This document shows positions 33,767 through 58,130 of a DNA stretch of 64,000 nucleotides, piece after piece. Origin of the DNA: a bacterium OM1 bin76 (GTDB taxonomy: Bacteria; Actinomycetota; Acidimicrobiia; Spongiisociales; ZC4RG35); assembly GCA_002238785.1 (NCBI GenBank), contig MPNA01000003.1, forward strand, positions 7,368-71,367. Direction: 5' to 3'. Each line of letters opens with the position of its first letter. The stretch's first letter is position 1. The notes under the pieces are model-generated. The model saw only the letters and a program-made list of their open reading frames with translations. It searched no databases and was not told where the DNA came from. Both the position numbers and the translations under genes were made by a program.

Positions 33767-34710
<944 letters not shown>

Positions 34711-34732
34711 GCAGAGAAGGACCAACCCGGAT

Positions 34733-35590
34733 ATGACATCTACCGCACAGTTCTCGGAGAGACGCAAGATCTGGAGGAGGATCGTCCACAATCCCCTTCA
34801 CCTCTTCACGCTCAGCATGGTGACGCTGCTGGTGCTGATGGCGGTGTTCGCCGATCTCGTGGCGCCTTACGGCGCAATCGAAGTGGTCGCCTATCCCTTC
34901 CAGTTGCCTACCGAACAGTTCTGGCTGGGTACCGACGAGATAGGAAGGGACATCTTCAGCCGGGTCATCCACGGGTCGCGCGTCTCGCTGTACGTGGGCT
35001 TTGCCTCCACGGCCATCGCGGTGATATTCGGGGTGCCGATGGGCGTGGTCAGCGGGTACTTCGGCAAGCTCACCGACACCATAATGATGCGCACCACCGA
35101 CGGCCTGCTGGCTTTCCCTCCCATCATCTTGGCCATGGCCATGGTGGCGGTGCTGGGAACCAACCTGCGGAACACCATCATCGCCATCGGGATAGTGCAG
35201 ATCCCCCGTTTCGCCCGTCTGGTGCGAGGAATGGCCCTCTCCCTCAAAGAGAGCGAATTCATCACCGCCGGCAGAGCCTTGGGCGCCAGTCATGTATATC
35301 TGATGCAACGGTCGCTCCTGCCCAACCTGACCTCGATCATCCTGGTGCAGTTCACTCTCACTTTCGCCACCGCGGTGCTAACCGAGGCCGCCCTCAGTTT
35401 CCTGGGTCTGGGCGCTCAGCCTCCCGCCCCGTCCTGGGGCGCCATGCTCCTCTCCGGAAAGACCCTGATCTCCACCAATCCGTACCTGGCGTTGGGAGCG
35501 GGAAGCGCCATATTCCTCACCGTGCTGATCTTCACCCTGCTGGGCGACACCCTCACCGACCTGCTCAACCCCTACCGCACCGACCGTTAA
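34733..35590 (+). CDS. ABC transporter permease (OppC/DppC-like)
   Basis: Six TM segments and an EAA motif region (ITAGRALGASHVYLMQRSLLPN). Confidence 0.8.
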   Translation: MTSTAQFSERRKIWRRIVHNPLHLFTLSMVTLLVLMAVFADLVAPYGAIEVVAYPFQLPTEQFWLGTDEIGRDIFSRVIHGSRVSLYVGFASTAIAVIFGVPMGVVSGYFGKLTDTIMMRTTDGLLAFPPIILAMAMVAVLGTNLRNTIIAIGIVQIPRFARLVRGMALSLKESEFITAGRALGASHVYLMQRSLLPNLTSIILVQFTLTFATAVLTEAALSFLGLGAQPPAPSWGAMLLSGKTLISTNPYLALGAGSAIFLTVLIFTLLGDTLTDLLNPYRTDR

Positions 35591-44114: not shown

Positions 44115-45494
44115 TCAGGCCAGCGCTTCCGTGATTCTGTTCGCCGCGTCCTGGGTCGCTTCCTCCGCAGTAGCCTCACCGGCCCACAGCAGATCCAACG
44201 CTGCCCCGGCGGCGGTGTCCACCGCGAAGCCCTTGGTCGTGAACGGAGTCCACGTTCCGGCCTCGACCATGGCAACGGCATCCTTCTTCCACTGGACGTC
44301 GTTGAAGCCGGCAATCTCCAGGGAACTGCGCCGAGTCGGTGTGGCAACCTGGCTCCATATTTCAAGACCCCTGGTGTCCGTGATGGTCTTGGTGAAGGCC
44401 CACGCAGCTTCGGGATTCTCTGACTGGGAAGAAATCGAGATGGTTCCCAACTCGAGTTTTCCAGCCCTAACGCCGTTGAAACTGGGAAGAGCCGTCACGT
44501 CATAGTCGAAATCGACCGTTCCCGCCAGGGCGCCATACCACCATGGGCCCATCAGGTACATACCGGTCTGCTGGTTGCGGAAGGCCTCCAGGTGAGTTCC
44601 TCCGGCCACCACCGGGTTGGGCGACTTGCCGTCCTCGATGAGCTTGGCGAAGTAGCCCAGCATCTGGGGACTGGCGCCCTGATGGATGGTTGGCTCAAGG
44701 GCCTCGTTGATGATGGTCCCGCCACCCATGAAGCAGAAGGTGTCGTAGTTCCACGACTCGAAGGAGACCCCGAAACGCATGCCGTTGCCGATCAGCGCGT
44801 CGATCGAATTGGTGAAGGCCTCTTCATTCCACTCGCCGTTTTGGAAGAGCACCTGAGGGTCTTCCAAGCCTGCCGCCGAGAAGGCATCGCGGTTGTAATA
44901 GATCACATAGGGCTCGGTGTTGTCGGGCATTCCGTACGCCTTGCCGTTGACCAAGGTGCCCTCGACCGTGGTGGGAATGAAGTCACCCATGTCAAGCTCT
45001 TCAGCGTCCCGTGCGATGTAATCGTCGATTTGCAGGAGTGCTTCGCCTTCCGCGGTCAGCTGAGTCAACTGGAAGTTGAGCATCCGCATCACGTCCGGCG
45101 CGTTACCTGCCGCAAACCTGGCCAGCAGTTGCGGGTACTCCTCGTAACCGTTGGCGGCCAGCGGCTCCCAGTTGACTTGGACATTCGGATACTTGGTGTT
45201 GAAGTAGTCAATGCGCTGCTGGATTACCTCACCTTCCAAGCCGGCGCCCCAGGCCCAGAGCGTGATCTCGCCACCGATGTCGTCGGAATCGGGTGCGGCC
45301 GTGGTCGTAGGTGCGGCCGTGGTGGGCGCAGCAGTGGTCGCCGGGGCGGCCGTCGTGTCGGCGGTGTCATCGCCGCAGGCCGCCAGGAATGCTGCCGCGG
45401 CCGCGGCCGTACCGCCGAGGCGGATGAATTCGCGTCGGGACATTCCGGCCTGCTTGGCCCGCCGGATAATGTCCATTTCCTTGGATAATCGCAT
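44115..45494 (-). CDS. sugar ABC transporter substrate-binding lipoprotein (CUT1 family, Tat-type signal)
   Basis: MSRREFIRLGGTAAAAAAFLAACGDD (RR motif plus lipobox), a TTAAPTTAAP linker, and an SBP_bac_1-like body. Confidence 0.8.
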   Translation of the reverse strand: MRLSKEMDIIRRAKQAGMSRREFIRLGGTAAAAAAFLAACGDDTADTTAAPATTAAPTTAAPTTTAAPDSDDIGGEITLWAWGAGLEGEVIQQRIDYFNTKYPNVQVNWEPLAANGYEEYPQLLARFAAGNAPDVMRMLNFQLTQLTAEGEALLQIDDYIARDAEELDMGDFIPTTVEGTLVNGKAYGMPDNTEPYVIYYNRDAFSAAGLEDPQVLFQNGEWNEEAFTNSIDALIGNGMRFGVSFESWNYDTFCFMGGGTIINEALEPTIHQGASPQMLGYFAKLIEDGKSPNPVVAGGTHLEAFRNQQTGMYLMGPWWYGALAGTVDFDYDVTALPSFNGVRAGKLELGTISISSQSENPEAAWAFTKTITDTRGLEIWSQVATPTRRSSLEIAGFNDVQWKKDAVAMVEAGTWTPFTTKGFAVDTAAGAALDLLWAGEATAEEATQDAANRITEALA

Positions 45495-45586
45495 TTTGTA
45501 TTCCTTTCTTTATTGAGGCTGTGTACTCACTCGAAGCCACTGGGGCACCTGGGAGGCGCCTTGGGCACCCCTACGCTGCTCCAGGT

Positions 45587-46369
45587 TCAGACTGCCGAGG
45601 GAATGTGTGACAGGTCTCGGGCGATGAACTCCTCACACGCTTCACGGGTGATGTAGGGCAATACAGAGTCCCAGCGAAGCGAGTCTCGAAGTATCTTGTT
45701 GTAAGCGGAGTCTCTGACGAACTCTTTGGGATCCATATCCTCCTGCAACTCGCACCAGATCATCCGGTTTCCCTTGCCCAGGTAGCGGTTCCAGGGAAAG
45801 GCATAGTCGGCGGTTCGGTCCGCCCGGCATGTGCGGATCCTGACCCATCCGTCCAACTCTGCGTATCTTGCCAGATGGGGACCCTCGAGCCACTCGTCGA
45901 ACCCCTCGGCGTGCTCAGCACCGACCTCGAAGCGTTCGACCACACAGCCACCGCTGCCGACCTGGTCCCGTCCGATGGCGCCCACCACCTTGGAGACGCT
46001 CATCATCGTTCCGTTGAACGGCTCCTCCTCCAACGTTGGATACTTCGACTCTCGTTCCAGCGTGGGTTCGTCCAGTCCTCCGGTAACTACTTCGCTGCCG
46101 ATCCAAGCGTGCATGTCTGGGATGCTGGTGGCCACATAGGGAATGAAACGGGTGGCCTGGGAAGAGTTGAAGGCCGCTGGAAGACCACTCTCAGGATCGA
46201 AATCGCGAATTATCTTGTAGCTGGAGGCTCCCAGTACTGCATAGTGACGACCGAAGTCGTCGAAGTGCCAGGGGGTCCAACCGTCAAGCTCTTCTTGCAG
46301 AGGGGGAGGACAGTCGACACGACAGACCAGAAGCGGGCGCTCGTCGGGCGGAACACTTGCCATACTCAC
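45587..46369 (-). CDS. hypothetical protein, paralog of 41521..42246
   Basis: Shared C-terminal pattern …RDSLRWDSVLPYITREA… and ERFEVGAEHAEGFDEWLEGPHL…. Confidence 0.4.
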   Translation of the reverse strand: MSMASVPPDERPLLVCRVDCPPPLQEELDGWTPWHFDDFGRHYAVLGASSYKIIRDFDPESGLPAAFNSSQATRFIPYVATSIPDMHAWIGSEVVTGGLDEPTLERESKYPTLEEEPFNGTMMSVSKVVGAIGRDQVGSGGCVVERFEVGAEHAEGFDEWLEGPHLARYAELDGWVRIRTCRADRTADYAFPWNRYLGKGNRMIWCELQEDMDPKEFVRDSAYNKILRDSLRWDSVLPYITREACEEFIARDLSHIPSAV

Positions 46370-46638
46370 CTGCCTTTTTGCAACATTCGATCATTAGATG
46401 ACCGATCACTTAATGATCCATGCTAGGTTGAGTTACCGTTCACCGACTGCCGTAGGCTCGGTTTTTTTATCGATGAAGGTCGTCATTAGGTCGGCCGACT
46501 CCAAGTCAACAGGATGGCAGACCAGGGTTTCCCATTCACCACCCCACCTCTCGCCAGGATCAGGGGAACCTGCAGGGAAGACACCAAGACCGTTTGGCGT
46601 TGTTCTCAGATGAAACCGTGGTGGTCTAAGCCGCCTGC

Positions 46639-47730
46639 CTAGTCCAGCCGGACGCCGCTGGCTTCGGCTTCCGCCACCGCCGAAGAAACCTGCTCGGCAC
46701 GGCGAGTCCGCGCCGAGCGGAGGCCGGCTTCGATCACCGCGATCCCTAAAGCAGAGGGGACCGGGTCTCCATGATTCACTGCATTCGGGTAACCGAGAGC
46801 CAGATCGCAGAAACCATGCACCGGGAGAGTTCCCGGATAGAGAGTGGCGCCGTGCATCAAGGGAAGGGCGAAGTCTTCTCCGTCCTCACGAACCACCTCG
46901 ATGCGGTCCCGCTCCAGGTCAACGATCACGACTCCCTCTGTTCCGAACACCCTCACCTCCATATGGTGACGTTGGGATGTCGGGACCCCCGCTCCACCCG
47001 AGACCGACACCAGGGGACCCTGGCGGGTGGTGGACAGGAATGCGTCAAACAGGTCGCTGCCCGCCGGGCCCGCGGTAACCGCTCCCATTACTTCGGCAGG
47101 AATCAGACCGGTGAGCCAGAACACCAAGGAATAGAGATGGCTCAACTGCCCATAGGCATAGCCGCCGTCATCGCCGACCCAGGTTGACGGTTCCGGCGGA
47201 CTCTCCGCGCCGGGTATGGAGTCCTCCTCGCCAGAGAAAAGGCCTCTAGCAGGAGAGGCCATCTGGGCAACCACATGCTCCAAGCGGCCGATCCGACCTT
47301 CCCTGATCCACTCCCGCGCCGCTGCGGCCTGGGGAAGGAATTGCCATCCGTGCGGAACCAGCAGGACTACACCCTGTTCCTGGGCCCCTCTCACCATGTC
47401 GAAGGCGTCAGCGGCCGTGATGGCCAGCGGCTTCTCACACATTACGTGCAAGCCCCGGTCCAGGGCGGACATGGTTTGCTCGTGGTGAAAACTGTGCGGC
47501 GAGGAAACCACCACCGCATCCAGTTCGTCCCAAGGCAGGTGGTTGTGATCCTCGGTAGCGATAGGGGCGCCGAACCGGTCTGCAACTGCCTTTACCTCAG
47601 CGGCGCCCTTCCGGCAAACAGCCCGGACTTCCACATCAGGACGGGACGCAAGAACCGGAAGGTGGTTCTCCACCGCCCACCACCCGGCGCCGATCACGGC
47701 AACTCTCAGGGGGAATCGGTTCATGCCCAC
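46639..47730 (-). CDS. Gfo/Idh/MocA-family oxidoreductase
   Basis: LRVAVIGAGWWAVENHLPVLASRPDVEVRAVC…EKPLA. Confidence 0.8.
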   Translation of the reverse strand: MGMNRFPLRVAVIGAGWWAVENHLPVLASRPDVEVRAVCRKGAAEVKAVADRFGAPIATEDHNHLPWDELDAVVVSSPHSFHHEQTMSALDRGLHVMCEKPLAITAADAFDMVRGAQEQGVVLLVPHGWQFLPQAAAAREWIREGRIGRLEHVVAQMASPARGLFSGEEDSIPGAESPPEPSTWVGDDGGYAYGQLSHLYSLVFWLTGLIPAEVMGAVTAGPAGSDLFDAFLSTTRQGPLVSVSGGAGVPTSQRHHMEVRVFGTEGVVIVDLERDRIEVVREDGEDFALPLMHGATLYPGTLPVHGFCDLALGYPNAVNHGDPVPSALGIAVIEAGLRSARTRRAEQVSSAVAEAEASGVRLD

Positions 47731-47802
47731 ATGCAGAATTCTACATGGCGTGGGCCGCAGACGCCCTGGCTTCCTGAATTGCCGGTTGGAAGTGAGACTG
47801 CC

Positions 47803-48036
47803 CTAAATGAAGAAGCCGCTGACCAGTTCTGCGAGTACAGCTAGACCGATGGCCCCTCCCACCCATTTCATCCACTGCAAATCATTGTGGAGTACCGCCA
47901 CCGCGGCTTTCAGGTCTTCTCGGGTCGCCAGCAGGTCTTCTCGGGTCGCCAGGGGCTCCAAGGCCATGGCCAGCGCATTTGTCTGAGCCTCGCTGAATCC
48001 CGCCTCTCGGAGAGCCACTCGTTGAGTTGTCTTCAT
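47803..48036 (-). CDS. small coiled-coil protein with C-terminal TM helix (DUF1640-like)
   Basis: MKTTQRVALREAGFSEAQTNALAMALEPLATREDL…KWVGGAIGLAVLAELVSGFFI, 77 aa. Confidence 0.3.
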   Translation of the reverse strand: MKTTQRVALREAGFSEAQTNALAMALEPLATREDLLATREDLKAAVAVLHNDLQWMKWVGGAIGLAVLAELVSGFFI

Positions 48037-48169
48037 TTCCTAACGTCACCTCCCGTGTTCACCCTTCGTCACTTCCAGTCTAACCAGCGCCAGTCCCTCC
48101 CGCCGCCCGAAACAGGATGATTCTCAGAGGTCGAGGTGTCCAAGCCGCCGGTGGCGGACATGGCTCAAC

Positions 48170-48232
48170 GCGGATCCCGACCCTATTGGACCACGGCGAC
48201 GTATTCTGTGATCACCTGCTGGCCAGCAGCCT
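48170..48232. repeat. degenerate direct copy of the add 3-prime end (last ~15 codons plus ~10 nt of 3-prime flank)
   Basis: 48186-48232 (minus) encodes …AAGQQVITEYVAVVQ*, versus the add C-terminus …VALQQEITEYVASVL*. It shares an 18-nt identical core GCGACGTATTCTGTGATC with 53160-53215. Confidence 0.7.
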
Positions 48233-48245
48233 ATCGGGGCTCAGC

Positions 48246-51200
48246 CTACAAGGGGATTGGCAGTTTGAGGAGCTTGGTTTTCTGATGAGAACGGCGAGCA
48301 CTCGCCCATTGGACCACAAGTTGGTCCTGGGTGAATAGGATCACCTGATGGTCGTTAGATGATTGGAGAAGGTATTCCAGCACCTGCTCCTTGCGTTCGG
48401 GGTCGGCATGCACGGTGGGATCGTCAAGTAACACCGGACACGGTTCGTGTCCGTCGGTCAATACCTGAGCGAGAATAATCCGCAACAGTAAGTACACCTG
48501 TTCAGCGGTCCCATGAGATAGGAGTGCCGCCTCCCTGATCATGCCATCCATATGTCGCAGTTTCACCTCAAGCGTCTCTGGGTCGACGAATGCGTCCACA
48601 TAGCGCCCACCTGTGACAAATGGAATCCGCTCCGTCATGAGGGCTTCCAACCTGGGCGCTAGAAGCCGATGGGCGCGCTCAGCAGCTCTTTGCAGGTATT
48701 CCCTGGCCGTGTCTAGGGTACTCTGGAGACGCTGCACCTTTGCCAGCTCACTCTTAGCTTTTTCGACAGTTGCCTTGGCCGTGGCCACATCCACGCGGTC
48801 TGTGCTTATTTGTTCAAGTTGTCCAGCAGCCCTGCTTGCTTCTTTACGAGCTTCTCGCAATTGACGATCACTCCGTTCTAGGACCACCCGGATGTTGTTT
48901 GACCCCAGTAGTTCCCCTTCTAAACCAGCAGACAACTCCTTTGCCTTTCGTCTGAGTTCCCTCGCTTCACGCTTGACGTGGGCGGCGTCGGTCTGCCATT
49001 CTTCTACCGAAAGACCCCCTAACGCCTCTTGAAAACGGCCCCACTCCGCAACGTCCTCTTGTCGCTGCTCCGCCAAACCCTCCAGATGACCCAACAGACC
49101 AACAGCCACCCTCAAGAGCTCACCCTCATCACCAGAACCATCCCCCCCATACGAGACCACAACACTACGCAACTCCTCAAAAGCCTCCTCCCGCGCAAGA
49201 CTCCGCCTCGCTTCCTCCTCATCAAACCGCCTACGCCGCCTGGCTAGCTCCGTAGTCTTCGAATGCTGCGCTTCAATTTCCTCTTTACACATAGGCGCCA
49301 CATCCAAGATGGCTGCCAAAGAATCGGTCTCATCTGCTGCCAACTCAACATCCCGGCGTGCACTCTTTGCCTCCTCCCTCCACTCCTCTATTGATCGACC
49401 CGAGAGTGCCTCTTGAAAACGGCCCCACTCCGCAACGTCCTCTTGTCGCTGCTCCGCCAAACCCTCCAGATGACCCAACAGACCAACAGCCACCCTCAAG
49501 AGCTCACCCTCATCACCAGAACCATCCCCCCCATACGAGACCACAACACTACGCAACTCCTCAAAAGCCTCCTCCCGCGCAAGACTCCGCCTCGCTTCCT
49601 CCTCATCAAACCGCCTACGCCGAAATATCATTTCCTCGGTCACTAGCCTTTCGGCGTCGATTGTCTTCGTTTCTAAGGTTTTACCATGAACCTTGGCGGT
49701 CATTTCCTCCACTCTTCTTCTCGCTAGATCCACATATTGTCTAGAGCTTTCAGCTTCAACTCGCCACGCTTCTACCGAGCGATCCCCCAGCGCCTCCTGA
49801 AAACGTCCCCACTCCGCAACATCCTGCTGTCGCTCTCGCGCCACCCGCTGAAGATCACTCAATAAATACGTGGACTCACCGAGAACCTGGCCTTCATCAC
49901 CAGATGCATCTCCCCCGTATAGAGACAAAACCCTCCGCAGCTCTGCAAAAGCATCCACCCGTTCAGCTTTCCGCTTCGCCTCCTCGTCATCGAACCGCCT
50001 GCGCCGCGCTACCATCTCCTCAAGCCTGCGCCGTTCGGAGGTTTGCTCACTCCAGGCGCGTTCCCTGTTGTAGAACTCGGCTATCGCGGCATCTGGATCA
50101 AGAGGAAGCTCCCACTCGTGAAGGAGACGATGAGCTTCAACCACCCTTGCATCGAAGGTCTCTCGCTCCCGGAGTTGACGCTCCAGAAACTGGAGCGCAA
50201 CCGGTGCAGCTGATCTCTGCTTAGACGGAACGACTCGAAGAAACCCCAATCCCAGAGCTACTAGGACTCCGGCCGAGATTCCATACAGAAGCTCCGTAGT
50301 AACCATCCAGACCCCAGCAGCCGCCACAACACCAAAACCGGTTAACATCGCCACTCTCCAACCCGACAAACCGGTCTCCGTTGGCGCTTGTATGCGACGG
50401 GCCTCCACCACTTGAGATTGCAGTTCCTGCTGTGGAGGAGGGTTTTCTCTTAGGGGAATTACCCACCGCTGGACATCGCCTGGACTAGGGCATGGCTTCG
50501 GGGGTGAGGCGTCGAGCATGCCGATGCGTTCCTCAAGATTGTCGAGAGGATCGAGGTCCGTGAACCCGGATGTTGGCAGACTGTTACACCGGGCAACGGC
50601 TGATGCCATATCGGCAAAACTCATCAGCTCCCGATTGCGTGGGTCCGCATCAAGAAATCGCTGCTCCCATTCTTCCAGACGCTCAACCTTCCGCTCCAAT
50701 TCCTCCGCCCGCCTCTCCGCCTCCTCCAAGTCCTCCAAATCCTCCACTAACTCCTTCTTCAGGCCCAATTCCTCCAAACGGTCCTCAAGGGCCTCCAACG
50801 GATCAAGATCCGTCCCAACAGACTCAGGCGCACTCTGAGCGCGGCGAATAGCAATTACAAGGTCCGCGGTACTGATTTCTTCCAGAGCTCGCGGATTACC
50901 ATCAACAAACCGACGCTCCCACTCCTGCAGACGTTCAACCTCTCTTGTTAGTTCGTCAGCTTGCTTCTCGGTCTCGTCTAGACCCTCAAACGCCTCAACT
51001 AACTCCTGCTGCTGATCCAATTCCCTTAGGCGACCTTCAAGAGCCTCCAACGGATCAAGATCCGTCCCAACAGACTCAGGCGCATTCTGAGCACCACTTA
51101 TGGCAACCACAAGGTCCGCCGTATTCTCCTCCCCTAGGATCCGCGGATCCCCTTCAGGAAACTGCCGCTCCCAGTCTGTCAGTCTGGTTGCTCTTTCTGT

Positions 51201-52013
51201 CAGTTGACTTGCCCTTATTTCAGCTTCGTCACTGGCCAACGACGCCTTCAGCGCTGCCTCCCGATCCTCCAGATCCCGAACCCTTCGACGATACCTGTCC
51301 ACTCGCCTCGCTAATTCCACATATTCTTGGCGGCGTTCCTGTGTTCTGGACAGTTGGCGTTCGGCTCTTTTCACACCATCGATCGCAAGCCGAAGAGGTC
51401 TTCTTGAATTCCTGCGATCAAGTCCTACATTCTCAGTTGAAAACTTCCTTATGCGCTCAATAGCTCCCGCCGCCGTGCCACCTGCGCCACCTGCGGCGGC
51501 CTGAGCGAGACTCTCTTGTAAGGCATCGCGCTCAGTCTTGCGCTCTCGTCTTCTTAGATCGAGGATCGAAAGTATGTCTGCTTGGCTAACCGACGCTGTT
51601 ATCGGAAAGGTTGTCCGATCGAGTCCTAGCCACTTAGAACCGTCGGGACTTCCCTGATTCATCAGGTCATCGGTTACTTTCCTTCCACCCACACCTATAT
51701 CCAGAACCCTGGTACTCGGAACCCTTAGATCGCGATCTATTTCGATAATGCGCCCATCATCCAGCGCTAGCTCCAAGGTGACCTGCCAATGGTCCGGATC
51801 GTCCCAAGGCTGGCGGCGTCTCTTGAAGTCTCTCTCTGCGTTGGTTCGACCACTCCCGTGCCTACGTCCGCACAGAGCTACTACTAGGGCAGCATGCCAC
51901 GTCGATTTGCCAGACTCGTTGGGTCCGTAGACAATGTTGAGAGCCTTACCGAAATTCAAACCCTCGTCGCGCAAGTGCCCGAAGGCCCCAGCGGTAATCT
52001 TGCGGAACCACAT
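48246..52013 (-). CDS. SbcC/Rad50-like SMC-family ATPase (YhaN/SbcE-like) with central transmembrane hairpin and internal tandem repeats
   Basis: N-terminal LNIVYGPNESGKST (Walker A). C-terminal LLSHGTAEQVYLLLRIILAQ plus PVLLDDPTVHAD (signature/Walker B-like). A very long charged coiled coil lies between them. Mid-protein …WRVAMLTGFGVVAAAGVWMVTTELLYGISAGVLVALGLGFLRVV forms two hydrophobic helices. No CxxC zinc hook. Confidence 0.7.
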   Translation of the reverse strand: MWFRKITAGAFGHLRDEGLNFGKALNIVYGPNESGKSTWHAALVVALCGRRHGSGRTNAERDFKRRRQPWDDPDHWQVTLELALDDGRIIEIDRDLRVPSTRVLDIGVGGRKVTDDLMNQGSPDGSKWLGLDRTTFPITASVSQADILSILDLRRRERKTERDALQESLAQAAAGGAGGTAAGAIERIRKFSTENVGLDRRNSRRPLRLAIDGVKRAERQLSRTQERRQEYVELARRVDRYRRRVRDLEDREAALKASLASDEAEIRASQLTERATRLTDWERQFPEGDPRILGEENTADLVVAISGAQNAPESVGTDLDPLEALEGRLRELDQQQELVEAFEGLDETEKQADELTREVERLQEWERRFVDGNPRALEEISTADLVIAIRRAQSAPESVGTDLDPLEALEDRLEELGLKKELVEDLEDLEEAERRAEELERKVERLEEWEQRFLDADPRNRELMSFADMASAVARCNSLPTSGFTDLDPLDNLEERIGMLDASPPKPCPSPGDVQRWVIPLRENPPPQQELQSQVVEARRIQAPTETGLSGWRVAMLTGFGVVAAAGVWMVTTELLYGISAGVLVALGLGFLRVVPSKQRSAAPVALQFLERQLRERETFDARVVEAHRLLHEWELPLDPDAAIAEFYNRERAWSEQTSERRRLEEMVARRRRFDDEEAKRKAERVDAFAELRRVLSLYGGDASGDEGQVLGESTYLLSDLQRVARERQQDVAEWGRFQEALGDRSVEAWRVEAESSRQYVDLARRRVEEMTAKVHGKTLETKTIDAERLVTEEMIFRRRRFDEEEARRSLAREEAFEELRSVVVSYGGDGSGDEGELLRVAVGLLGHLEGLAEQRQEDVAEWGRFQEALSGRSIEEWREEAKSARRDVELAADETDSLAAILDVAPMCKEEIEAQHSKTTELARRRRRFDEEEARRSLAREEAFEELRSVVVSYGGDGSGDEGELLRVAVGLLGHLEGLAEQRQEDVAEWGRFQEALGGLSVEEWQTDAAHVKREARELRRKAKELSAGLEGELLGSNNIRVVLERSDRQLREARKEASRAAGQLEQISTDRVDVATAKATVEKAKSELAKVQRLQSTLDTAREYLQRAAERAHRLLAPRLEALMTERIPFVTGGRYVDAFVDPETLEVKLRHMDGMIREAALLSHGTAEQVYLLLRIILAQVLTDGHEPCPVLLDDPTVHADPERKEQVLEYLLQSSNDHQVILFTQDQLVVQWASARRSHQKTKLLKLPIPL
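49025..50176. repeat. three in-frame tandem 384-bp units inside the SbcC-like gene; copies 1 and 2 share a ~222-bp identical core
   Basis: 49025-49246 equals 49409-49630 (read directly). A third diverged unit starts at 49793. Each unit encodes the 128-aa module RRRRFDEEEARRSLAREEAFEELRSVVVSYGGDGSGDEGELLRVAVGLLGHLEGLAEQRQEDVAEWGRFQEAL…. Confidence 0.85.
50487..51050. repeat. 2.3 tandem 252-bp (84-aa) units inside the SbcC-like gene
   Basis: The module TDLDPLEALE(G/D)RL(R/E)EL…EWE(R/Q)RF(V/L)D…P…SVG is repeated. GGATCAAGATCCGTCCCAACAGACTCAGGCGCA occurs at both ~50800 and ~51052. Confidence 0.8.
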
Positions 52014-52016
52014 AGC

Positions 52017-53123
52017 TCAACCCACGGCTAAGTCGTTGCGGCCCTCAAGAGCACGTAACCCCGTGATAATAACCCTGTGCCGTTCGTCATCATCAAGATC
52101 GGCTGCGATCAAGTCGCGGACGAACTCCCCTCGCACTGTGGACTCCTCCTGTATAGCCGCAACATCATACCCGGGATTCAGGCTGCCTGCACGTACCACT
52201 AAATCCTGCAGTTGGCCTCGGCGTTGGCTGAGTACGGCAAGGTCAAGTTGTACAGCACTAGCCAATTCCCCATGAAGAGTGACTCTGGCTACCCCTTTAA
52301 GAGGCTCCAACGCGGCCTTCATGCGGTCCTGTATTTCTCCGAAATCAACGCATCCGCTCACATCCATTACGAGATCGTGGATCTGCAAGCTTGTAACCCT
52401 ATGCGAAGTGCGTTGAACCGTGCCCCGAGCGTCAAACGACATCTCAACTGCTCCCCCTCTGCCTTGATCCTTGAATGAAAGCGGGGCGGGAGTTCCAGGG
52501 TATGTGTGGGAATCTCCCATGAAAGGACTGTGGTAATGACCGACTATGCAATGAACAAGTCCCGCCGCGGAAATGTCGTCGGCGCGAAACGGTGCATGTC
52601 GTATCTTCTCAGGATGGGATTGCGCTACGCTTGCCCAGCCACCAATCTCCGATCCGTGAAACAACCCTAAGTGCAAAGCATCGCCTTCCACCTCAAATCG
52701 ACTTAGTGGATTCACGGTTTGTGAAGGGTTTCTATGGGCGAAGCCCCACACCCGAACACCGTCAAGGCCATCGTATGGCGTCAGATCACCCGCACCAAAT
52801 ATGTGGACGTTGGGTGACCAGTCTGCCGTCACGTAAATACTTCCTGGTCCATACCAATCGTGATTTCCGGGAGAAATCAAGACCGGAATCGGTGCCACCT
52901 CAGCGAAGAGGCGCTGCAACATCTGAACGGTGTCCGGAGTGTAAAGCTCGTGCTCGTAGAGGTCCCCAGCACACATCAGCATATCCACCTCTAAATGACT
53001 GGCCAATCGAACAATCCTGCTTAAGGTGTTTTTCAATTCGCCACGCCGCAATTGAGACAAGGTGGGCCCTCTCCCAGTAAACGGGGCATCCAAGTGGAGA
53101 TCGGAAAAGGCGAGTACCTTCAA
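52017..53123 (-). CDS. SbcD/Mre11-like calcineurin-type metallophosphoesterase nuclease (YhaO-like)
   Basis: MKVLAFSDLHLD, CAGDLYEH, SPGNHDW and GHYH are phosphoesterase motifs I-IV/V. Its stop is 3 nt from the start of the SbcC-like gene. Confidence 0.75.
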   Translation of the reverse strand: MKVLAFSDLHLDAPFTGRGPTLSQLRRGELKNTLSRIVRLASHLEVDMLMCAGDLYEHELYTPDTVQMLQRLFAEVAPIPVLISPGNHDWYGPGSIYVTADWSPNVHIFGAGDLTPYDGLDGVRVWGFAHRNPSQTVNPLSRFEVEGDALHLGLFHGSEIGGWASVAQSHPEKIRHAPFRADDISAAGLVHCIVGHYHSPFMGDSHTYPGTPAPLSFKDQGRGGAVEMSFDARGTVQRTSHRVTSLQIHDLVMDVSGCVDFGEIQDRMKAALEPLKGVARVTLHGELASAVQLDLAVLSQRRGQLQDLVVRAGSLNPGYDVAAIQEESTVRGEFVRDLIAADLDDDERHRVIITGLRALEGRNDLAVG

Positions 53124-53159
53124 GATTTATGCTCTCTTAGATGATCGTGTCTGGTGCAG

Positions 53160-53215
53160 TTCCCAACCTTAGAGAACAGACGCGACGTATTCTGTGATCT
53201 CTTGCTGGAGAGCAA
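53160..53215. repeat. native add 3-prime end that is duplicated at 48170-48232
   Basis: See the 48170 repeat. Together the two copies bracket the SbcD/SbcC-like module. Confidence 0.7.
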
Positions 53216-54167
53216 CCTTCCGATCCTCCGGTAGGAAGGAAGCGGTGACAGAGTTGCGCGCCAGTTGCGCCAGATCATCGCAGGAGAGATCCAGGGCCGT
53301 GGCGATGGCGAGGTAGTTATCCCCGACGTATCCGCCGAAGTAGGCAGGGTCGTCGGAGTTGACGGTGACCAGAACCCCGGCATCCAGCAACTCCTTGAGA
53401 TTGTGGCAGCGGAGGTCAGGGAACACCTGGAGCTTCTGGTTCGACAGAGGACACATGGTCAGAGGAATCTGCTCTCGGACCAACCGCTCCACCAGAGCGG
53501 GATCATCCGCGGCCCGCACTCCATGGTCGATGCGTTCCACTCCCAATACATCGAGAGCTGACCAGATGTATTCCGCCGGGCCCTCCTCGCCGGCGTGGGC
53601 CACAGGTCTCAGGCCAGCCTCTACAGCCCGGCGGTAAGCCTCGGCAAACAACTCAGGGGGATTACCCAACTCGCCCGAGTCGAGTCCCACCCCTTGGATG
53701 TAAGCAAGGTATGGTCGGGCCTGCTCGAAGACCTCGACAGCCGATTCGGGTGAAAGGTGCCGGAGAAAACAAAGGATCAGGGTCGACGAGACTTCCGCCA
53801 CTCTTTTCTGTCCTCGTGCGAACCCGCGGATCACCGTCCCGATGTCGATCCCCCGCTCGGTGTGCGTTTGAGGATCGAAGAAGATCTCCGCGTGACGCAC
53901 CCCGTCCGACGCCGCTTTCGCAAGGTAGGCAGCCATCAATTGGGCGAAGTCGTTCTCTGTTTGCAGCACCGCGGCAGCTTGGTAATAGATGTCGAGAAAC
54001 GATTGGAGATCGTCGAACTCGTAGGCCGCCGCAACATCCTCGACCGACTGGAACGGCAGTGCCACGCCGTTGCGCTCCCCCATCTCGAACATCATCTCCG
54101 GCTCCAGAGTGCCCTCGATATGAATGTGTAACTCGGTCTTCGGTAGGCCCCGGACGAAACTCTCCAT
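53169..54167 (-). CDS. add: adenosine deaminase
   Basis: LPKTELHIHIEGTLEPEMMFEMGERNG…FF…HAGEEGPAEYIWSALDVLGVERIDHGVRA…TVNSDDPAYF. Confidence 0.8.
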   Translation of the reverse strand: MESFVRGLPKTELHIHIEGTLEPEMMFEMGERNGVALPFQSVEDVAAAYEFDDLQSFLDIYYQAAAVLQTENDFAQLMAAYLAKAASDGVRHAEIFFDPQTHTERGIDIGTVIRGFARGQKRVAEVSSTLILCFLRHLSPESAVEVFEQARPYLAYIQGVGLDSGELGNPPELFAEAYRRAVEAGLRPVAHAGEEGPAEYIWSALDVLGVERIDHGVRAADDPALVERLVREQIPLTMCPLSNQKLQVFPDLRCHNLKELLDAGVLVTVNSDDPAYFGGYVGDNYLAIATALDLSCDDLAQLARNSVTASFLPEDRKVALQQEITEYVASVL

Positions 54168-54282
54168 GTCTCTGCTCCCTTTCATGGACATAGCTCAATA
54201 GGGACGTTGTTACTACGGGTATTTGGAAAAACGAGAGAGCGCACCCAGGCGCTCTCTCGTGAATCCAACTTAGGTGCCTGGG

Positions 54283-55602
54283 TTACAGGAACATCTCGAT
54301 CCAATCGCTGGCAAAGTAGACCAGGCTGGCAATGGAGACGACCCACATCAAGACGTGAATCTCGCTTGACTTGCCCTTCACCACCTTGATCAGGGTGTGC
54401 GTCACAAACCCGGCGGCAATACCGACGGTGATCGAGAAGGTCAACGGCATGAGGATGATCGCCAACAGTGCCGGCAATCCTTCTTCCAAGTCCGTAAAGT
54501 CGATGTGCTTGAGCAGCCCAACCATGAGGAACCCGATCAGGATCAGCACCGGCGCCGTCGCCTGCCCCGGAACAATCCCGGCCAGCGGCGACAGGACGAT
54601 AGCAATCAAAAAGAGGATTCCCGTGACCACGGACGTGAGCCCGGTCCTTCCTCCTTCTGCTACCCCCGCCGAACTCTCGATGTAGCTGGTGTTCGAGCTA
54701 ACTCCGGCCACACCGCCGAAAGCGGCACCCAGCGAGTCCACCAACAGGAGGCTCTTGAGACGACCAATCCCGCCGTCCTTCTTGGTCAACCCGGCTTGCT
54801 CGACGATGGCAGTGGCTGTGCCCATCGTGTCGAAGAAGTCGGCGAGCATCAGAGTGAAAATCGCCAGGATCGCCGACAGGAAGCCGAGTTCTGCAAACGA
54901 GTTGCCCAGGTCGAATCCCCCGAAGGTCTCGAAGTTCACTGATGCCGAGATGGTGTCCGGCACACTGGCGACTCCAGCTATCAGCGCCACGATGGTGGTG
55001 GCCACGATGGTGATGATCATCGCACCCCTCACCTTGCGCGCCACAAGAACCACACCGATCAGCACCCCGATCAAGGTCACGCCCTGGCCGGCCTCGGTGG
55101 GGAACACGAACTCGACGATCGTGCCCCCTTCTCCGTGAACCAGCCCGCCGTTGACCAAGCCGATGAACAGGATGAATAGGCCAATGCCCACCCCGATGGA
55201 GTACTTGAGACTGGTCGGTATCGCTTCCATCACGGCTTCCCGCAGGCCCAGCAAGACGAGTATGGTCACCAACACGCCCTCCCAGACCACGACTCCCATG
55301 GCTCCCTCTATCGAGAGGCCTTGGGCCGTCAAACTATAGGCCACGACCGCGTTGAGCCCCAGACCTGCCGCCATGGCGATCGGGTAGTTGGAGAAAACCC
55401 CCATGGCGATCGTCATGATTGCGGCTACCAACGCTGTACCAGCCGCTACGGCAGTGGGGTCAAGACCCGCGTCGCCAAGAATCAAGGCGTTCACGAACAG
55501 TATGTAGGCCATCACCAAGAATGTGGTGATGCCCGCGCGAACCTCCGTGCCTAACGAGGAGCCCCGCTCTGAAATGCGGAAATAGCTGTCTAAACCTTGC
55601 AC
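54283..55602 (-). CDS. NCS2-family purine permease (AzgA/PbuG-like adenine/guanine/hypoxanthine permease)
   Basis: From the GTG start: VQGLDSYFRISERGSSLGTEVRAGITTFLVMAYILFVN… is the AzgA N-terminus. AGGAGG lies 8 nt upstream of the GTG at 55602. Confidence 0.8.
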   Translation of the reverse strand: MQGLDSYFRISERGSSLGTEVRAGITTFLVMAYILFVNALILGDAGLDPTAVAAGTALVAAIMTIAMGVFSNYPIAMAAGLGLNAVVAYSLTAQGLSIEGAMGVVVWEGVLVTILVLLGLREAVMEAIPTSLKYSIGVGIGLFILFIGLVNGGLVHGEGGTIVEFVFPTEAGQGVTLIGVLIGVVLVARKVRGAMIITIVATTIVALIAGVASVPDTISASVNFETFGGFDLGNSFAELGFLSAILAIFTLMLADFFDTMGTATAIVEQAGLTKKDGGIGRLKSLLLVDSLGAAFGGVAGVSSNTSYIESSAGVAEGGRTGLTSVVTGILFLIAIVLSPLAGIVPGQATAPVLILIGFLMVGLLKHIDFTDLEEGLPALLAIILMPLTFSITVGIAAGFVTHTLIKVVKGKSSEIHVLMWVVSIASLVYFASDWIEMFL

Positions 55603-55625
55603 TATTCCCACCTCCTTCCAAATTT

Positions 55626-55644
55626 GTTGTCTACTGATAGGACA
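55626..55644. promoter_or_regulatory. imperfect palindrome TTGTCTAC-tga-TAGGACAA 24-42 nt upstream of the purine permease start (candidate operator)
   Basis: TTGTC-N9-GACAA core read from the sequence. A 10-bp direct repeat CTATTCCCAC occurs twice nearby (55603 and 55661). Confidence 0.25.
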
Positions 55645-55859
55645 ACTGGCCACTCCTCATGCTATTCCCACAGAGTGGAATTCTGGGGGGCTAACAGTGG
55701 TTTTTTTCCGCACCGACCTCTTAGATTTGCCTTCCCTGGTCCCCTAATCAGCTTTTCGAGGCCAATACCCACACGCGCCACAGGGTTCGGGCCGCCGCGA
55801 CAGATCAGGTCCCGCGACCGCCTCTCCAACTCTCGCGCCGTCGAGACAAACCCAGCCGG

Positions 55860-56096
55860 CTACGTTTCGATAACGCAGATCACCTCGCCGGTGACCACCT
55901 CGGCATCTTCTTCCACCAGGATCTCAATGATCGTTCCAGCCACAGGAGAAGGCACCTCCGTCTCAACTTTGTCGGTTTCCACCAGGGCCAGTTCGGTGTC
56001 CTCATCCACCTCGTCACCCACCTCGACCATCCACTGGAGAAGTACCACCTCGTCGACCGTCTCGCCCAGCCTGGGCATCTTCACCTCAAAAGGCAT
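55860..56096 (-). CDS. stand-alone lipoyl/biotinyl-attachment domain protein (E2-like lipoyl carrier, no catalytic domain)
   Basis: MPFEVKMPRLGETVDEVVLLQWMVEVGDEVDEDTELALVETDKVETEVPSPVAGTI is the lipoyl-lysine motif ETDKV. Only 78 aa. Confidence 0.7.
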   Translation of the reverse strand: MPFEVKMPRLGETVDEVVLLQWMVEVGDEVDEDTELALVETDKVETEVPSPVAGTIIEILVEEDAEVVTGEVICVIET

Positions 56097-56112
56097 TGGT
56101 TGGCACCTCCTT

Positions 56113-57105
56113 CTAAACGGGCGCGTAGATGTTGCGGAACATGGCGTCGACACCAGCCGGAGGACTGGCTTTCACCGTCTCCATCGCCGCCTCGATGCGG
56201 GCTGCGACTTGCCGGTCCACCTCGTCGGCCTGTCCCTCGGCCAGCAAACCTTCGGATTCCAGTCTGGCCCGGAAGGTGTTAATAGGATCCCGCTGGAACC
56301 ATCGCTCGAATTCTCCTTCCGGCCGATACTCGGCCTTGTCGGCGCGGGAATGGCCGGCGTAACGGTAGGTCTTCATCTCCAACAGAGTCGGGCCCTCCCC
56401 CGAACGTGCTCTGTCCAGAGCTTCGCTCACCGCCTTTACCGTGGCATCCGGATCCTGTCCGTCCACCATGATCCCCGGAATCCCGTAGGAGACCGCCCGG
56501 TCGGCCAGATCCTCTATGGGCGTAGTCAGGTTGATCCGGCTGTATTCGCCGTACTGGTTGTTCTCACAAACGAACACCACCGGCAGTTTCCAGATCGCCG
56601 CCAGGTTGAGACCCTCGTGGAAAGCGCCGATGTTGGATGCGCCGTCCCCGAACACCCCGATCGCCGCGTCGTCGGTTCCCTTCACCTGGGCGGTCAACGC
56701 CGCGCCGGCAGCCACCGGAATCCCGGCGCCGATGATGGCAAAAGTGGGCAGCAGGCCCAGTTCCTTATCAACCAGGTGCATGGAGCCGGCGATGCCCCCA
56801 ATGCATCCCATTTCCCGGCCCATGATCTCCCCGAGGATCGATTCGGGGGTCATTCCCAGGGCCAACCCCATTCCATGTCCCCGATAGGTGCAGGTGACCG
56901 TATCAGTCGGGCGGGCCACCGCGGCGATACCCACCGCCACCGCTTCCTGTCCCTGGGCGGTATGGGTGGTGCCATGCACCACTCCCTCGGCAAAGAGACC
57001 CTGTACCCGATCCTCGAAAGCACGGATTTCCACCATCCGCTCGTACCGCGCCACGCGGTCGGCGGCCAGAGCCAAGCGGCGTTCCATTTTCGTTCTGTCG
57101 CCCAT
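56113..57105 (-). CDS. 2-oxoacid (pyruvate/acetoin) dehydrogenase E1 component alpha subunit, TPP-dependent
   Basis: …YRGHGMGLALG…GDGASNIGAFHEGLNLAAIWKLPVVFVCENNQYG… is the TPP-binding motif. Confidence 0.8.
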   Translation of the reverse strand: MGDRTKMERRLALAADRVARYERMVEIRAFEDRVQGLFAEGVVHGTTHTAQGQEAVAVGIAAVARPTDTVTCTYRGHGMGLALGMTPESILGEIMGREMGCIGGIAGSMHLVDKELGLLPTFAIIGAGIPVAAGAALTAQVKGTDDAAIGVFGDGASNIGAFHEGLNLAAIWKLPVVFVCENNQYGEYSRINLTTPIEDLADRAVSYGIPGIMVDGQDPDATVKAVSEALDRARSGEGPTLLEMKTYRYAGHSRADKAEYRPEGEFERWFQRDPINTFRARLESEGLLAEGQADEVDRQVAARIEAAMETVKASPPAGVDAMFRNIYAPV

Positions 57106-58130
57106 CAGACGCGGCTCCCTTCTCCCACCCACCAGGGCTCCGGCACCCGGCCGGTGGCCATCAGTTGATCTATCTGGTCCGTTACATACTCTTTGTTCGG
57201 CATGTATCGCAACTCCAACTCCCGCCCGAACGGCACGGGGACATCGGGGCATGTAACTCGTAGGACCGGCGCCTTCAGTTCACCGAATAGGCGGGAACCG
57301 ACATAGGCGGAGATCTCAGTCCCCCAACCGGAGGTGTAAGGGCTCTCCTCCACGATTACCAGCCGACCGGTCCGCCGCACCGCCGAGACAACCGCGTCAC
57401 GATCCCATGGGATGAGGGTTTGGAGGTCGATGACTTCCGCCGACCAGTTGTCCGAAGACTTGGCGGCGGCCATGGCCACCCGCAACATCGCTCCGGCGGT
57501 AACGATGGTGACATCGTCGCCTTCCCGGACCCGGGCGATCTCTCCCAGCGGAATAATCCCCTCTTCTCCCCTGGTCACCGGACCGCGGCCGCCGTACAGT
57601 GCCCGCGGTTCCAAAACGACCACCGGATTGGGATCGCGGATCGCCGACCGCATCAGCCCGTAGGCAGATTGGGGTCCGGAGGCAACGGCCATCTTCAGGC
57701 CGGGGGCATTGTTCAACCAGTTCTCAAACGTCTGGGAGTGTTGGCATCCAAACCCCAACCCGGCGCCGACCGAAGCCCGAACCACCATCGGACATGTGAA
57801 TACCCCGTTGGAGAGGAAATGGAATTTGGCTGCTTCTGTCACCACCTGGTCGAGCGCCACTCCCAAGAATTCGATGAACATGATCTCGGCCACCGGGCGC
57901 AGTCCCGAAGCGGCGGCGCCAACCGCCATGCCGAGAAATCCCATTTCCGATATCGGAGTGTCTCTCACCCGCAGCGGTCCGAACTCCTCCAGCAGTCCGT
58001 CCGAGGTCTTGAAAGGTCCCCCGGCAGCCGCCACGTCCTCCCCGAATACCACCACCGTGGGGTCTTGGCGCATCTCATCGCCAAGGGCGGCCGCCACCGC
58101 CTGGTTCATCCGCATTCGGGCCATTACCAC
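57105..58130 (-). CDS. 2-oxoacid dehydrogenase E1 component beta subunit
   Basis: …VVVFGEDVAAAGGPFKTSDGLLEEFGPLRVRDTPISEMGFLGMAVGAAASGLRPVAEIMF…. Confidence 0.85.
   Translation of the reverse strand: MVMARMRMNQAVAAALGDEMRQDPTVVVFGEDVAAAGGPFKTSDGLLEEFGPLRVRDTPISEMGFLGMAVGAAASGLRPVAEIMFIEFLGVALDQVVTEAAKFHFLSNGVFTCPMVVRASVGAGLGFGCQHSQTFENWLNNAPGLKMAVASGPQSAYGLMRSAIRDPNPVVVLEPRALYGGRGPVTRGEEGIIPLGEIARVREGDDVTIVTAGAMLRVAMAAAKSSDNWSAEVIDLQTLIPWDRDAVVSAVRRTGRLVIVEESPYTSGWGTEISAYVGSRLFGELKAPVLRVTCPDVPVPFGRELELRYMPNKEYVTDQIDQLMATGRVPEPWWVGEGSRV

Follow-up and report, generated by a model that had tools for sequence, protein, structure and literature searches.

A decayed second copy of the adenosine deaminase gene end beside an SbcEF-type nuclease-ATPase operon in Acidimicrobiia: probably an old recombination scar

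In Bacillus subtilis, SbcE (YhaN) and SbcF (YhaO), described as a fourth SMC-like system in Gram-positive bacteria, take part in double-strand-break repair and in competence; SbcE has a central hydrophobic domain and no CxxC motif, and yhaN lies downstream of yhaO (PMC2811018). Two other described situations concern gene ends that have been duplicated or pushed aside. The 15-kb prophage e14, which has its own integrase and undergoes SOS-induced excision, enters icd, as does phage 21, leaving the pseudo-3' end icdC (PMC13626634, and Hill et al. 1989 as cited there). At Rhs and type VI secretion system (T6SS) effector-immunity loci, displacement by homology-facilitated illegitimate recombination (HFIR, as defined in PMC3240628) has been proposed (PMC5361080). 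Here we analyse a locus that shares features with all three, in a 64,000-nucleotide stretch (the window, meaning this stretch at its full length) of contig MPNA01000003.1, assembly GCA_002238785.1, from a bacterium of the Acidimicrobiia. In it, a pair of genes resembling sbcD and sbcC (hereafter also the module, or sbcDC) lies between two copies of the end of add, the adenosine deaminase gene. An earlier note on this stretch read the repeat as the att-like footprint of an inserted element and the gene pair as horizontally acquired cargo, perhaps a nuclease-based defence. We consider it likely that the downstream copy is instead an old, integrase-free recombination or duplication scar beside a native, long-resident repair operon of the SbcEF type, and not an attachment site.

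All genes of the add region are on the minus strand. They run from perm, a xanthine/uracil-family permease gene (54283-55653), through add itself (53169-54191; 340 aa; Pfam A_deaminase 1e-88, NCBIfam NF006850 1e-150), a gene for an SbcD/SbcF (YhaO)-like nuclease of the Mre11 family (52017-53123; 368 aa; Pfam Metallophos) and a gene for an SbcC/SbcE (YhaN)-like SMC-type ATPase (48246-52013; 1255 aa; Pfam AAA_23 and AAA_27), to sm77 (47803-48036), a small membrane-protein gene whose 77-aa product bears a hydrophobic segment at its C-terminus, and a Gfo/Idh/MocA oxidoreductase gene (46639-47730). The perm and Gfo genes are the left-hand and right-hand members of a segment that varies among relatives. 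The 45-nt add-sbcD spacer (53124-53168) constitutes the sbcD leader, and 3 nt separate the stop of sbcD from the start of sbcC. Copy B (53156-53218) is the working end of add and comprises its last 16 codons, the stop and 13 nt of flank. Copy A, a non-coding relic at 48170-48232, is a decayed version of the same piece (~16 terminal codons with their stop, and ~13 nt beyond it). As the earlier note had it, copy A directly follows the SbcC-like gene, 13 nt separating its upper end from the stop codon (48246-48248), and only the two open reading frames (ORFs) at 52017-53123 and 48246-52013 lie between the copies. On the other side a correction is needed: copy A does not adjoin the Gfo/Idh/MocA gene, since sm77 lies between them.

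The two copies form a genuine, degenerate direct repeat. They align without gaps over 63 nt with 47 identities (75%), at an offset of 4986 nt, a multiple of 3. The 18-nt identical core, GCGACGTATTCTGTGATC, was found in the window at 48196 and 53182 only, allowing up to three mismatches, against an expectation of 0.05; two or more sites occurred in 0 of 100 shuffles. An alignment of the add end with its own 10-kb downstream sequence gave a score of 49 for the window, compared with 21-28 for 15 related loci, which serve as an empirical null. Read on the minus strand, copy B specifies VALQQEITEYVASVL and a stop, the C-terminus of add; copy A translates as AAGQQVITEYVAVVQ and a stop (48183-48185) that is in register with that of add (53169-53171). 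Copy A shares the frame of sbcC, with a stop closing it at either side.

We compared the window with related loci (numbered L001 and upward; 8-10 kb visible per side). A neighbour-joining tree built on ceramidase, E1b and E1a groups the window with L003 (bootstrap 100%) and both with L171/L172 (80%) as clade X; clade Y, which includes L006, is supported at 100%, X and Y together at 97.5%, and L082/L083 fall outside X+Y. Loci L007-L011 form clade Z. Copy A keeps ancestral bases at positions that have changed in copy B (the TAG stop, CAG and GCC); it does not derive from the present copy B, and the copies have diverged by 25%. Its bases ACAGAATAC are common to clade Y and copy B, L003 and clade Z having ACCGA(T/C)TAC instead. 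Because of the retained ancestral bases and the clade-typical ACAGAATAC, the split between A and B is judged to be old, on a par with the divergence between these species (dS 0.6-1.5). The sequence beyond copy A is the one found after an intact add in module-free relatives. Thus sm77 stands directly after an intact add in L003, L007 and L011 and after the relic in the window, L169, L171 and L172, and the sequence GCCATGTCCGCCAC.GGCG just downstream of the relic (48146-48164, minus strand) is homologous to that 3' of the intact add of L006 (z=7.1; 0 of 500 shuffles reached the score). These observations support the view that add now ends in copy B, and that copy A is its former 3' end, displaced and decaying; to that extent the earlier interpretation stands.

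Its second half, that the displacement marks an attachment site, is not supported by the relatives. A stub follows sbcC in every locus in which sbcDC precedes Gfo (L169, L171/L172, L167, L168, L170, L173 and L174). The relic of L169, a metagenome contig from the Joint Genome Institute (JGI) that is 99.9% identical to the window, is identical to the window relic and in the same place. In L171/L172, where no add lies upstream of sbcD, the relic agrees with the add consensus at 43 of 46 positions (z=22) and with the window relic at z=18, in an aligned stretch that includes the short spacer after sbcC. Clade-Y stubs run from the final ~7 codons of add and its stop through the ~45-nt sbcD leader to about the tenth codon of sbcD, whose start, GGGTGCTCGCTCTTTCCGACCTTCAT, they include; they match the add-sbcD junction of L005 over 91 nt at 74% identity (E 5e-11, z 22-24). 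Since the copied piece spans that junction, sbcD already adjoined add when the copy arose. Such a stub fits a tandem duplication of a unit running from the add end to sbcC, or the displacement of a resident copy by an incoming allele; it does not fit the attL and attR of an element entering a naive add. The 18-nt core, moreover, is deleted from clade-Y stubs and altered in that of L172, and the stub boundaries differ, at about -16 codons in the window and about -7 in clade Y.

We propose that in an acidimicrobial ancestor the add-sbcD-sbcC stretch gained a second, partial copy of its own left end downstream. This could have come about through tandem duplication of a unit of ~5 kb, from the add 3' end to the sbcC stop. 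Alternatively, an incoming homologous allele, anchored by homology in perm-add, may have displaced the resident one, with an illegitimate join just upstream of the resident add end, as in HFIR. We could not separate these two routes. The scar with its homologues, the synteny, the selection and the L006/L167 mosaic are observed; the choice of route, like a single origin of the window-type and clade-Y stubs and the biochemical function, is inferred. The downstream copy would then have decayed to a stub, of ~16 add codons, the stop and 13 nt in the window, and of ~7 add codons, the stop, the sbcD leader and ~10 sbcD codons in clade Y. The whole segment from perm-add through sbcDC and sm77, where present, to Gfo is swapped between related genomes by homologous recombination in the conserved flanks, and the module has also been lost repeatedly by deletion. 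The displacement route has its closest likeness in the Rhs and T6SS loci, where an incoming allele is tethered at one end by its homology to a conserved upstream gene and joined illegitimately at the other without an integrase, the resident 3' part is pushed downstream as an orphan fragment, and arrays are later swapped by homologous recombination. The likeness has bounds: the window locus encodes a repair-type nuclease-ATPase rather than a toxin-immunity pair, it has one stub and no array, and its mechanism is put forward by analogy rather than demonstrated. Consistent with the earlier note, no integrase or recombinase was found in the insert, nor in any of the Pfam-searched window genes from 44115 to 58130 or the gene calls of L081-L086 and L167-L174.

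Exchange of the module without an integrase can be seen directly. L006 and L167 group at 100% bootstrap and their flanks are 99.3% and 98.3% identical, yet perm-add is 92% and Gfo 78% identical, and sbcDC is absent from L006. In this mosaic, homologous recombination in conserved flanks has exchanged the entire perm-to-Gfo segment for another allele. The arrangement around it is diverse. The window and L169 have perm-add-sbcDC-stub-sm77-Gfo and a sugar-transport cluster; L167, L168, L170, L173 and L174 have perm-add-sbcDC-stub-Gfo; L004 has perm-add-sbcD-sbcC up to the contig end; L171 and L172 have sbcDC-stub-sm77-HNH-Gfo and no perm-add; and L082 and L083 have sbcDC only. Among the others, L006 has perm-add-Gfo, and L003 has perm, an altered add, sm77, a further gene, a second sm77 and Gfo. 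In clade Z, perm-add is followed by sm77 and then other genes in L007 and L011, and by other genes without sm77 in L008-L010. The expectation that related genomes would lack the module between add and Gfo was therefore borne out in L006 and L003, but not in others such as L167-L170.

Several loci record partial losses. L005 has perm-add and then the first 58 sbcD codons only (SbcD residues 1-58). L001 and L002 have add, the first 17 nt of the sbcD leader (z 5-7) and rearranged core genes such as a PanB-like one (assigned by eye from translation); L004, at a distance of only 3% from L001, does have the module. L003, nested among stub-bearing genomes, has no module, and its add has an abnormal C-terminus that ends in DYIISSWPGSTQG and a stop (about 10980-11017), consistent with a secondary, imprecise loss. 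We considered whether the L003 tail is a hybrid with the relic and found no significant similarity except at the sm77 leader. L010 shows an apparent 1-nt deletion and a long abnormal add tail (about 10987-11062). With add altered in both L010 and L003, its 3' end is a recurrent breakpoint. In L171/L172, perm-add appears to have been deleted, the signs of this being a spacer between lipoyl and sbcD that in L172 weakly resembles the sequence upstream of perm (z 3.3) and a CCGTTT microhomology noticed by eye; an add origin of that spacer (z 2.8) was rejected, as the perm upstream region matches about equally weakly. A large gene pair downstream of add in L012/L014, tried as a distant sbcDC, proved to be NAD-epimerase and Mfd. 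A mosaic within the window's own perm-add is no more than tentative: a maximum chi-square test placed a shift near 54553-54580 (p<0.0005, permutation), and outgroup-polarised quartet counts were mixed (X 12, Y 5, Z 13). Three insertion sequence (IS) types lie, as independent insertions, in the lipoyl-perm intergenic region at the left edge of the variable segment (IS605 OrfB/TnpB-like, IS481-like and DDE_Tnp_1, at L167 4681-5604, L168 932-1957 and L173/L174 2705-4094).

The module is not foreign cargo, as it occupies the same backbone position across relatives, diverges in step with its neighbours and is under selection (dN/dS 0.09-0.24). The conserved backbone runs adh_short, ceramidase-like, E1b, E1a and lipoyl genes, then the variable interval, then AP_endonuclease and arabinose-isomerase-like genes. 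The module lies immediately right of the adh_short-ceramidase-E1-lipoyl cluster in L004, L082, L083 and L167-L174; in every module-bearing relative it is to the right of E1-lipoyl, with perm-add between them in most genomes. Relative to the window proteins, identity is 70-81% for SbcD and 84-91% for E1b. Purifying selection acts on both module genes, with dN/dS values of 0.09-0.13 for sbcD and 0.15-0.24 for sbcC. The sbcD leader is homologous in L004, L005, L167, L170, L171 and L172, and also in L082/L083, where no add precedes it. At closest range, L081, a 13.4-kb contig of GCA_026713945.1, has an SbcD gene identical to that of the window, and seven other fully covered window proteins and the retained part of SbcC are all 100% identical; this contig ends inside sbcC, at residue 844. 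The closest species representatives are Acidimicrobiia metagenome-assembled genomes with add at 84-89% amino acid identity, and more distant ones are titled Candidatus Spongiisociaceae.

Base composition had been suggested as a check on foreign origin, and the module is indeed an outlier in GC content at third codon positions (GC3; 0.54 for sbcD and 0.55 for sbcC, against a window median of 0.73). As L167, L082 and seven of nine distant loci show the same deficit, it belongs to the family, for example through weak codon bias, and is not a sign of recent import. Small nuclease or DNA-binding genes stand beside the module in some relatives: an HNH endonuclease gene after sm77 (L171 11472-11996, L172 10744-11337), a HIRAN-domain gene after sbcC (L083 13618-14019) and, in a distant genome, an AbiEi_4/MTES_1575 gene (L086 13711-14625). 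In L171 (6251-10874) and L172 (7109-10238) the sbcD and/or sbcC frames are split (97+142 aa; 158+745 aa; 195+957 aa), which could be pseudogenisation or assembly indel errors.

The reading that deserves the closest comparison is site-specific integration: an integrase-less cassette, made up of an attP (an add 3' end) and sbcD-sbcC, would enter add at its 3' end with the help of a recombinase from elsewhere in the genome, the clade-Y stub then reflecting a second, tandem integration beside a decayed earlier copy. As at e14/icd, direct repeats of the target 3' end lie at both borders, here flanking exactly two genes with an 18-nt identical core; the working 3' end would be supplied, intact, by the inserted DNA, and the displaced old end is a direct-repeat fragment at the far side, followed by the native downstream sequence of add. 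Module-free genomes exist, and the left junction (add stop and leader) is the same in clades X and Y. Unlike e14, however, the window module has neither an integrase nor phage genes, its repeats are 25% diverged with copy A not derived from the present copy B, and the displaced piece in sister genomes includes the start of the supposed cargo gene itself, so that the repeat is not confined to the target gene. Nor is the core conserved as a site wherever the module sits (it is deleted from clade-Y stubs and altered in L172), and the stub boundaries are unequal. No integrase is present in any annotated region; L082/L083 have the module at the same backbone position without an add-end repeat on either side (no add relic was found upstream or downstream of their sbcDC); the sole within-species pair that differs in module presence has had a larger segment replaced, with divergent perm-add and Gfo; and the family is a widespread, selected actinobacterial operon. 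We therefore regard site-specific integration as quite unlikely; the small probability that it keeps is owed to the 8-10 kb visible per side and to clade Z, which may never have been occupied. A bolder version, in which the add end with sbcD and sbcC forms a cassette that targets the add 3' end, is capable of tandem insertion and owes its movement either to a recombinase acting in trans or to the Mre11/Rad50-like nuclease-ATPase that it encodes, strikes us as very improbable. If true, it would explain the fixed-position stubs after sbcC in several lineages and would give repair-type nuclease operons a means of spreading not described before.

At the other extreme, tandem duplication and decay may account for everything, with an ancestor of the whole group, clade Z included, that had add-sbcDC-stub, and with the add-sm77 and add-Gfo arrangements produced by deletion between the direct repeats or nearby. 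The junction-spanning clade-Y stub, the recurrent partial deletions (L005, L001/L002 and L003) and the position of L082/L083, outside X+Y yet with sbcDC at the same backbone position, are as this account would have them. Clade Z, though, shows no trace of the sbcD leader or of a stub after add; the window stub bases ACAGAATAC, common to clade Y and copy B, suggest an origin after the split from Z; and a putative sbcD remnant in the L006 intergenic region is suggestive only and not significant (z=2.1). We hold this account to be unlikely. Chance similarity or convergence of two unrelated sequences might be entertained for so short a region (63 nt) in a GC-rich genome, but its probability is negligible given the alignment score far above its null, a core seen twice against the small expectation, a peptide and stop codon in register, and homologous stubs in seven other loci.

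Against the scar interpretation that we prefer, some observations must be set. In the window stub, neither the sbcD leader nor a 5' piece of sbcD could be detected (z=0), and the window taken by itself is compatible with naive insertion into add-sm77. Likeness between window-type and clade-Y stubs is confined to add-derived bases and beyond these is not significant: the window and L170 stubs show no significant similarity (z=-0.2), and those of L172 and L173 match (z=5.1) on GTCGC.TCCGTTCT only. As the shared bases are only add-derived, a single origin of the two stub types would follow from their equal position (up to 20 nt from the sbcC stop) and not from their sequence. Clade Z, with add-sm77 and no leader trace, could represent a never-occupied ancestral state; parsimony on the species tree is unreliable, because segments have been swapped by recombination; a recombinase encoded beyond the visible flanks could have acted in trans; and the biochemical function of the gene pair is predicted from homology only.

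That prediction nonetheless points in a consistent direction. By architecture and homology, the window pair is assigned to the SbcF/SbcE (YhaO/YhaN) type of Mre11/Rad50-like pairs. In translation, the nuclease has the Mre11 phosphoesterase motifs I-VI, with SDLH, GD, GNHD, H and GHYH intact. It matches Pfam Metallophos at 1e-11 and, in its first 93 residues only, the Mre11/SbcD structures of T. maritima in the PDB at 2e-8. The ATPase has a Walker A motif GPNESGKST, a C-terminal lobe resembling that of Rad50 (PDB Rad50 C-lobe, E 3e-4) and a match to Pfam AAA_27 (PF13514; E 4e-7, 30.3 bits, cut-off 22) in which only residues 1-47 are aligned; most listed homologues carry a precomputed PF13514. 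No CxxC motif of a zinc hook is present in its 1255 aa, which hold five Cys in all. At the site of the Rad50/SbcC zinc hook there is a central hydrophobic hairpin of ~45 residues (residues 553-597; 50223-50357, minus strand), and a hydropathy scan found a hydrophobic mid-length segment in 19 of 20 sampled homologues. The apex of the coiled coil is a hydrophobic hairpin, probably inserted in the membrane, instead of a zinc hook.

Like B. subtilis SbcEF, the window locus has the sbcD-like nuclease gene immediately upstream of the gene for a long SMC-like ATPase, and the ATPase combines heads and long helical arms with a conserved hydrophobic domain at its centre, lacks CxxC and matches AAA_27 at its N-terminus; the likeness to YhaN is drawn from its description and from AAA_27 rather than from direct sequence comparison. 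Differences are the length of the window ATPase, whose arms are enlarged by 128-aa and 84-aa tandem units in strain-variable number, the acidimicrobial host and the lack of a yhaM-like exoribonuclease gene downstream. With E. coli SbcCD and the archaeal and eukaryotic Mre11-Rad50 complexes the pair shares the Mre11 motifs, an ABC-type ATPase head with Walker A, a Rad50-like C-lobe and the operon order of nuclease, then ATPase, the likeness to PDB Mre11-Rad50 covering no more of the nuclease than its first 93 residues and no more of the ATPase than its C-lobe. It differs from these in having the hydrophobic hairpin in place of the zinc hook, and the NCBIfam models for SbcD, SbcC and Rad50 all score far below their cut-offs (nuclease against TIGR00619, sbcd, 34 bits, cut-off 77.65; Rad50 models 15-22 bits, cut-offs 700-1000). 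By analogy with SbcEF, the pair most likely processes DNA ends or double-strand breaks.

The SbcD-like family is large, with more than 1500 matches, some labelled Micromonosporaceae or Kineosporiaceae by their sources. Its members are normally followed by a partner of 790-1050 aa, a pairing recovered in seven of nine distant loci where an SbcD ORF was found. A metagenome scan with SbcD returned relatives at up to 50% identity only, mostly on unidentified JGI and other metagenome contigs. The suggestion of a nuclease-based defence found no support in the defence models, whose matches are of the generic P-loop/SMC kind. Lamassu or another SMC- or OLD-type defence system was considered and set aside: the PADLOC match to LmuB (2e-18) is partial, and there is no LmuA or LmuC partner gene. 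Matches to GajA, AriA and others cover the P-loop only (residues 1-60), mad3 is among the partial or P-loop matches, the nuclease hits PDC-S10 only (0.003), and the neighbours are add and sm77.

The enlarged arms of the ATPase are built of repeats. Three tandem 384-nt (128-aa) units lie in the C-terminal arm (48996-50006, minus strand; copies 1 and 2 95% identical) and two tandem 252-nt (84-aa) units in the N-terminal arm (50629-51132, minus strand; 72% identical). The ATPase of L169, which belongs to the same species (99.9% identity), has one 128-aa unit fewer and is 1127 aa long, and lengths between 776 and 1255 aa occur among SbcC orthologues, so the arms differ in length both within and between species.

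Repeats also occur in sm77, which contains a perfect 21-nt tandem duplication at 47911-47952 and short internal repeats (LATREDL, or VE.LR.D heptads) whose number is different in every orthologue. Its conserved motifs are ALREAGF.EAQTNALA and LRWMKWVGGAIG, it has a conserved leader, TGAACACGGGAGGTG, and L003 has two copies of the gene. A Pfam search of sm77 and a 260-aa neighbour gave no family above threshold, with a faint CCDC90-like match for sm77 (E 0.05). Elsewhere in the window, an inverted repeat between perm and add (54223-54268; 20 nt, 85% complementary, 6-nt loop; TTGGAAAAACGAGAGAGCGC / GCGCTCTCTCGTGAATCCAA) could be a hairpin or an operator, and a promoter and terminator scan gave nothing at the junctions. 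The long ORFs 55597-57168 and 33810-34736 (both on the plus strand) have no Pfam family or an atypical GC3 (0.44); the former overlaps the E1 alpha gene on the opposite strand, and both are most likely shadow ORFs rather than genes.

The locus belongs to known kinds, an SbcEF-type operon and, in our reading, a displacement scar, and not to a new class of system. It carries a caution: the duplication of a gene end around a compact module resembles an att footprint, and integrase-free recombination, by displacement or tandem duplication at a locus exchanged among related genomes, can give the same pattern. For the organisms themselves, uncultivated and probably sponge-associated Acidimicrobiia, it documents an SbcEF-type, probably membrane-anchored operon that, where present, is kept under purifying selection, has been lost repeatedly in relatives, and encodes an ATPase whose arms vary in the number of their units from strain to strain.

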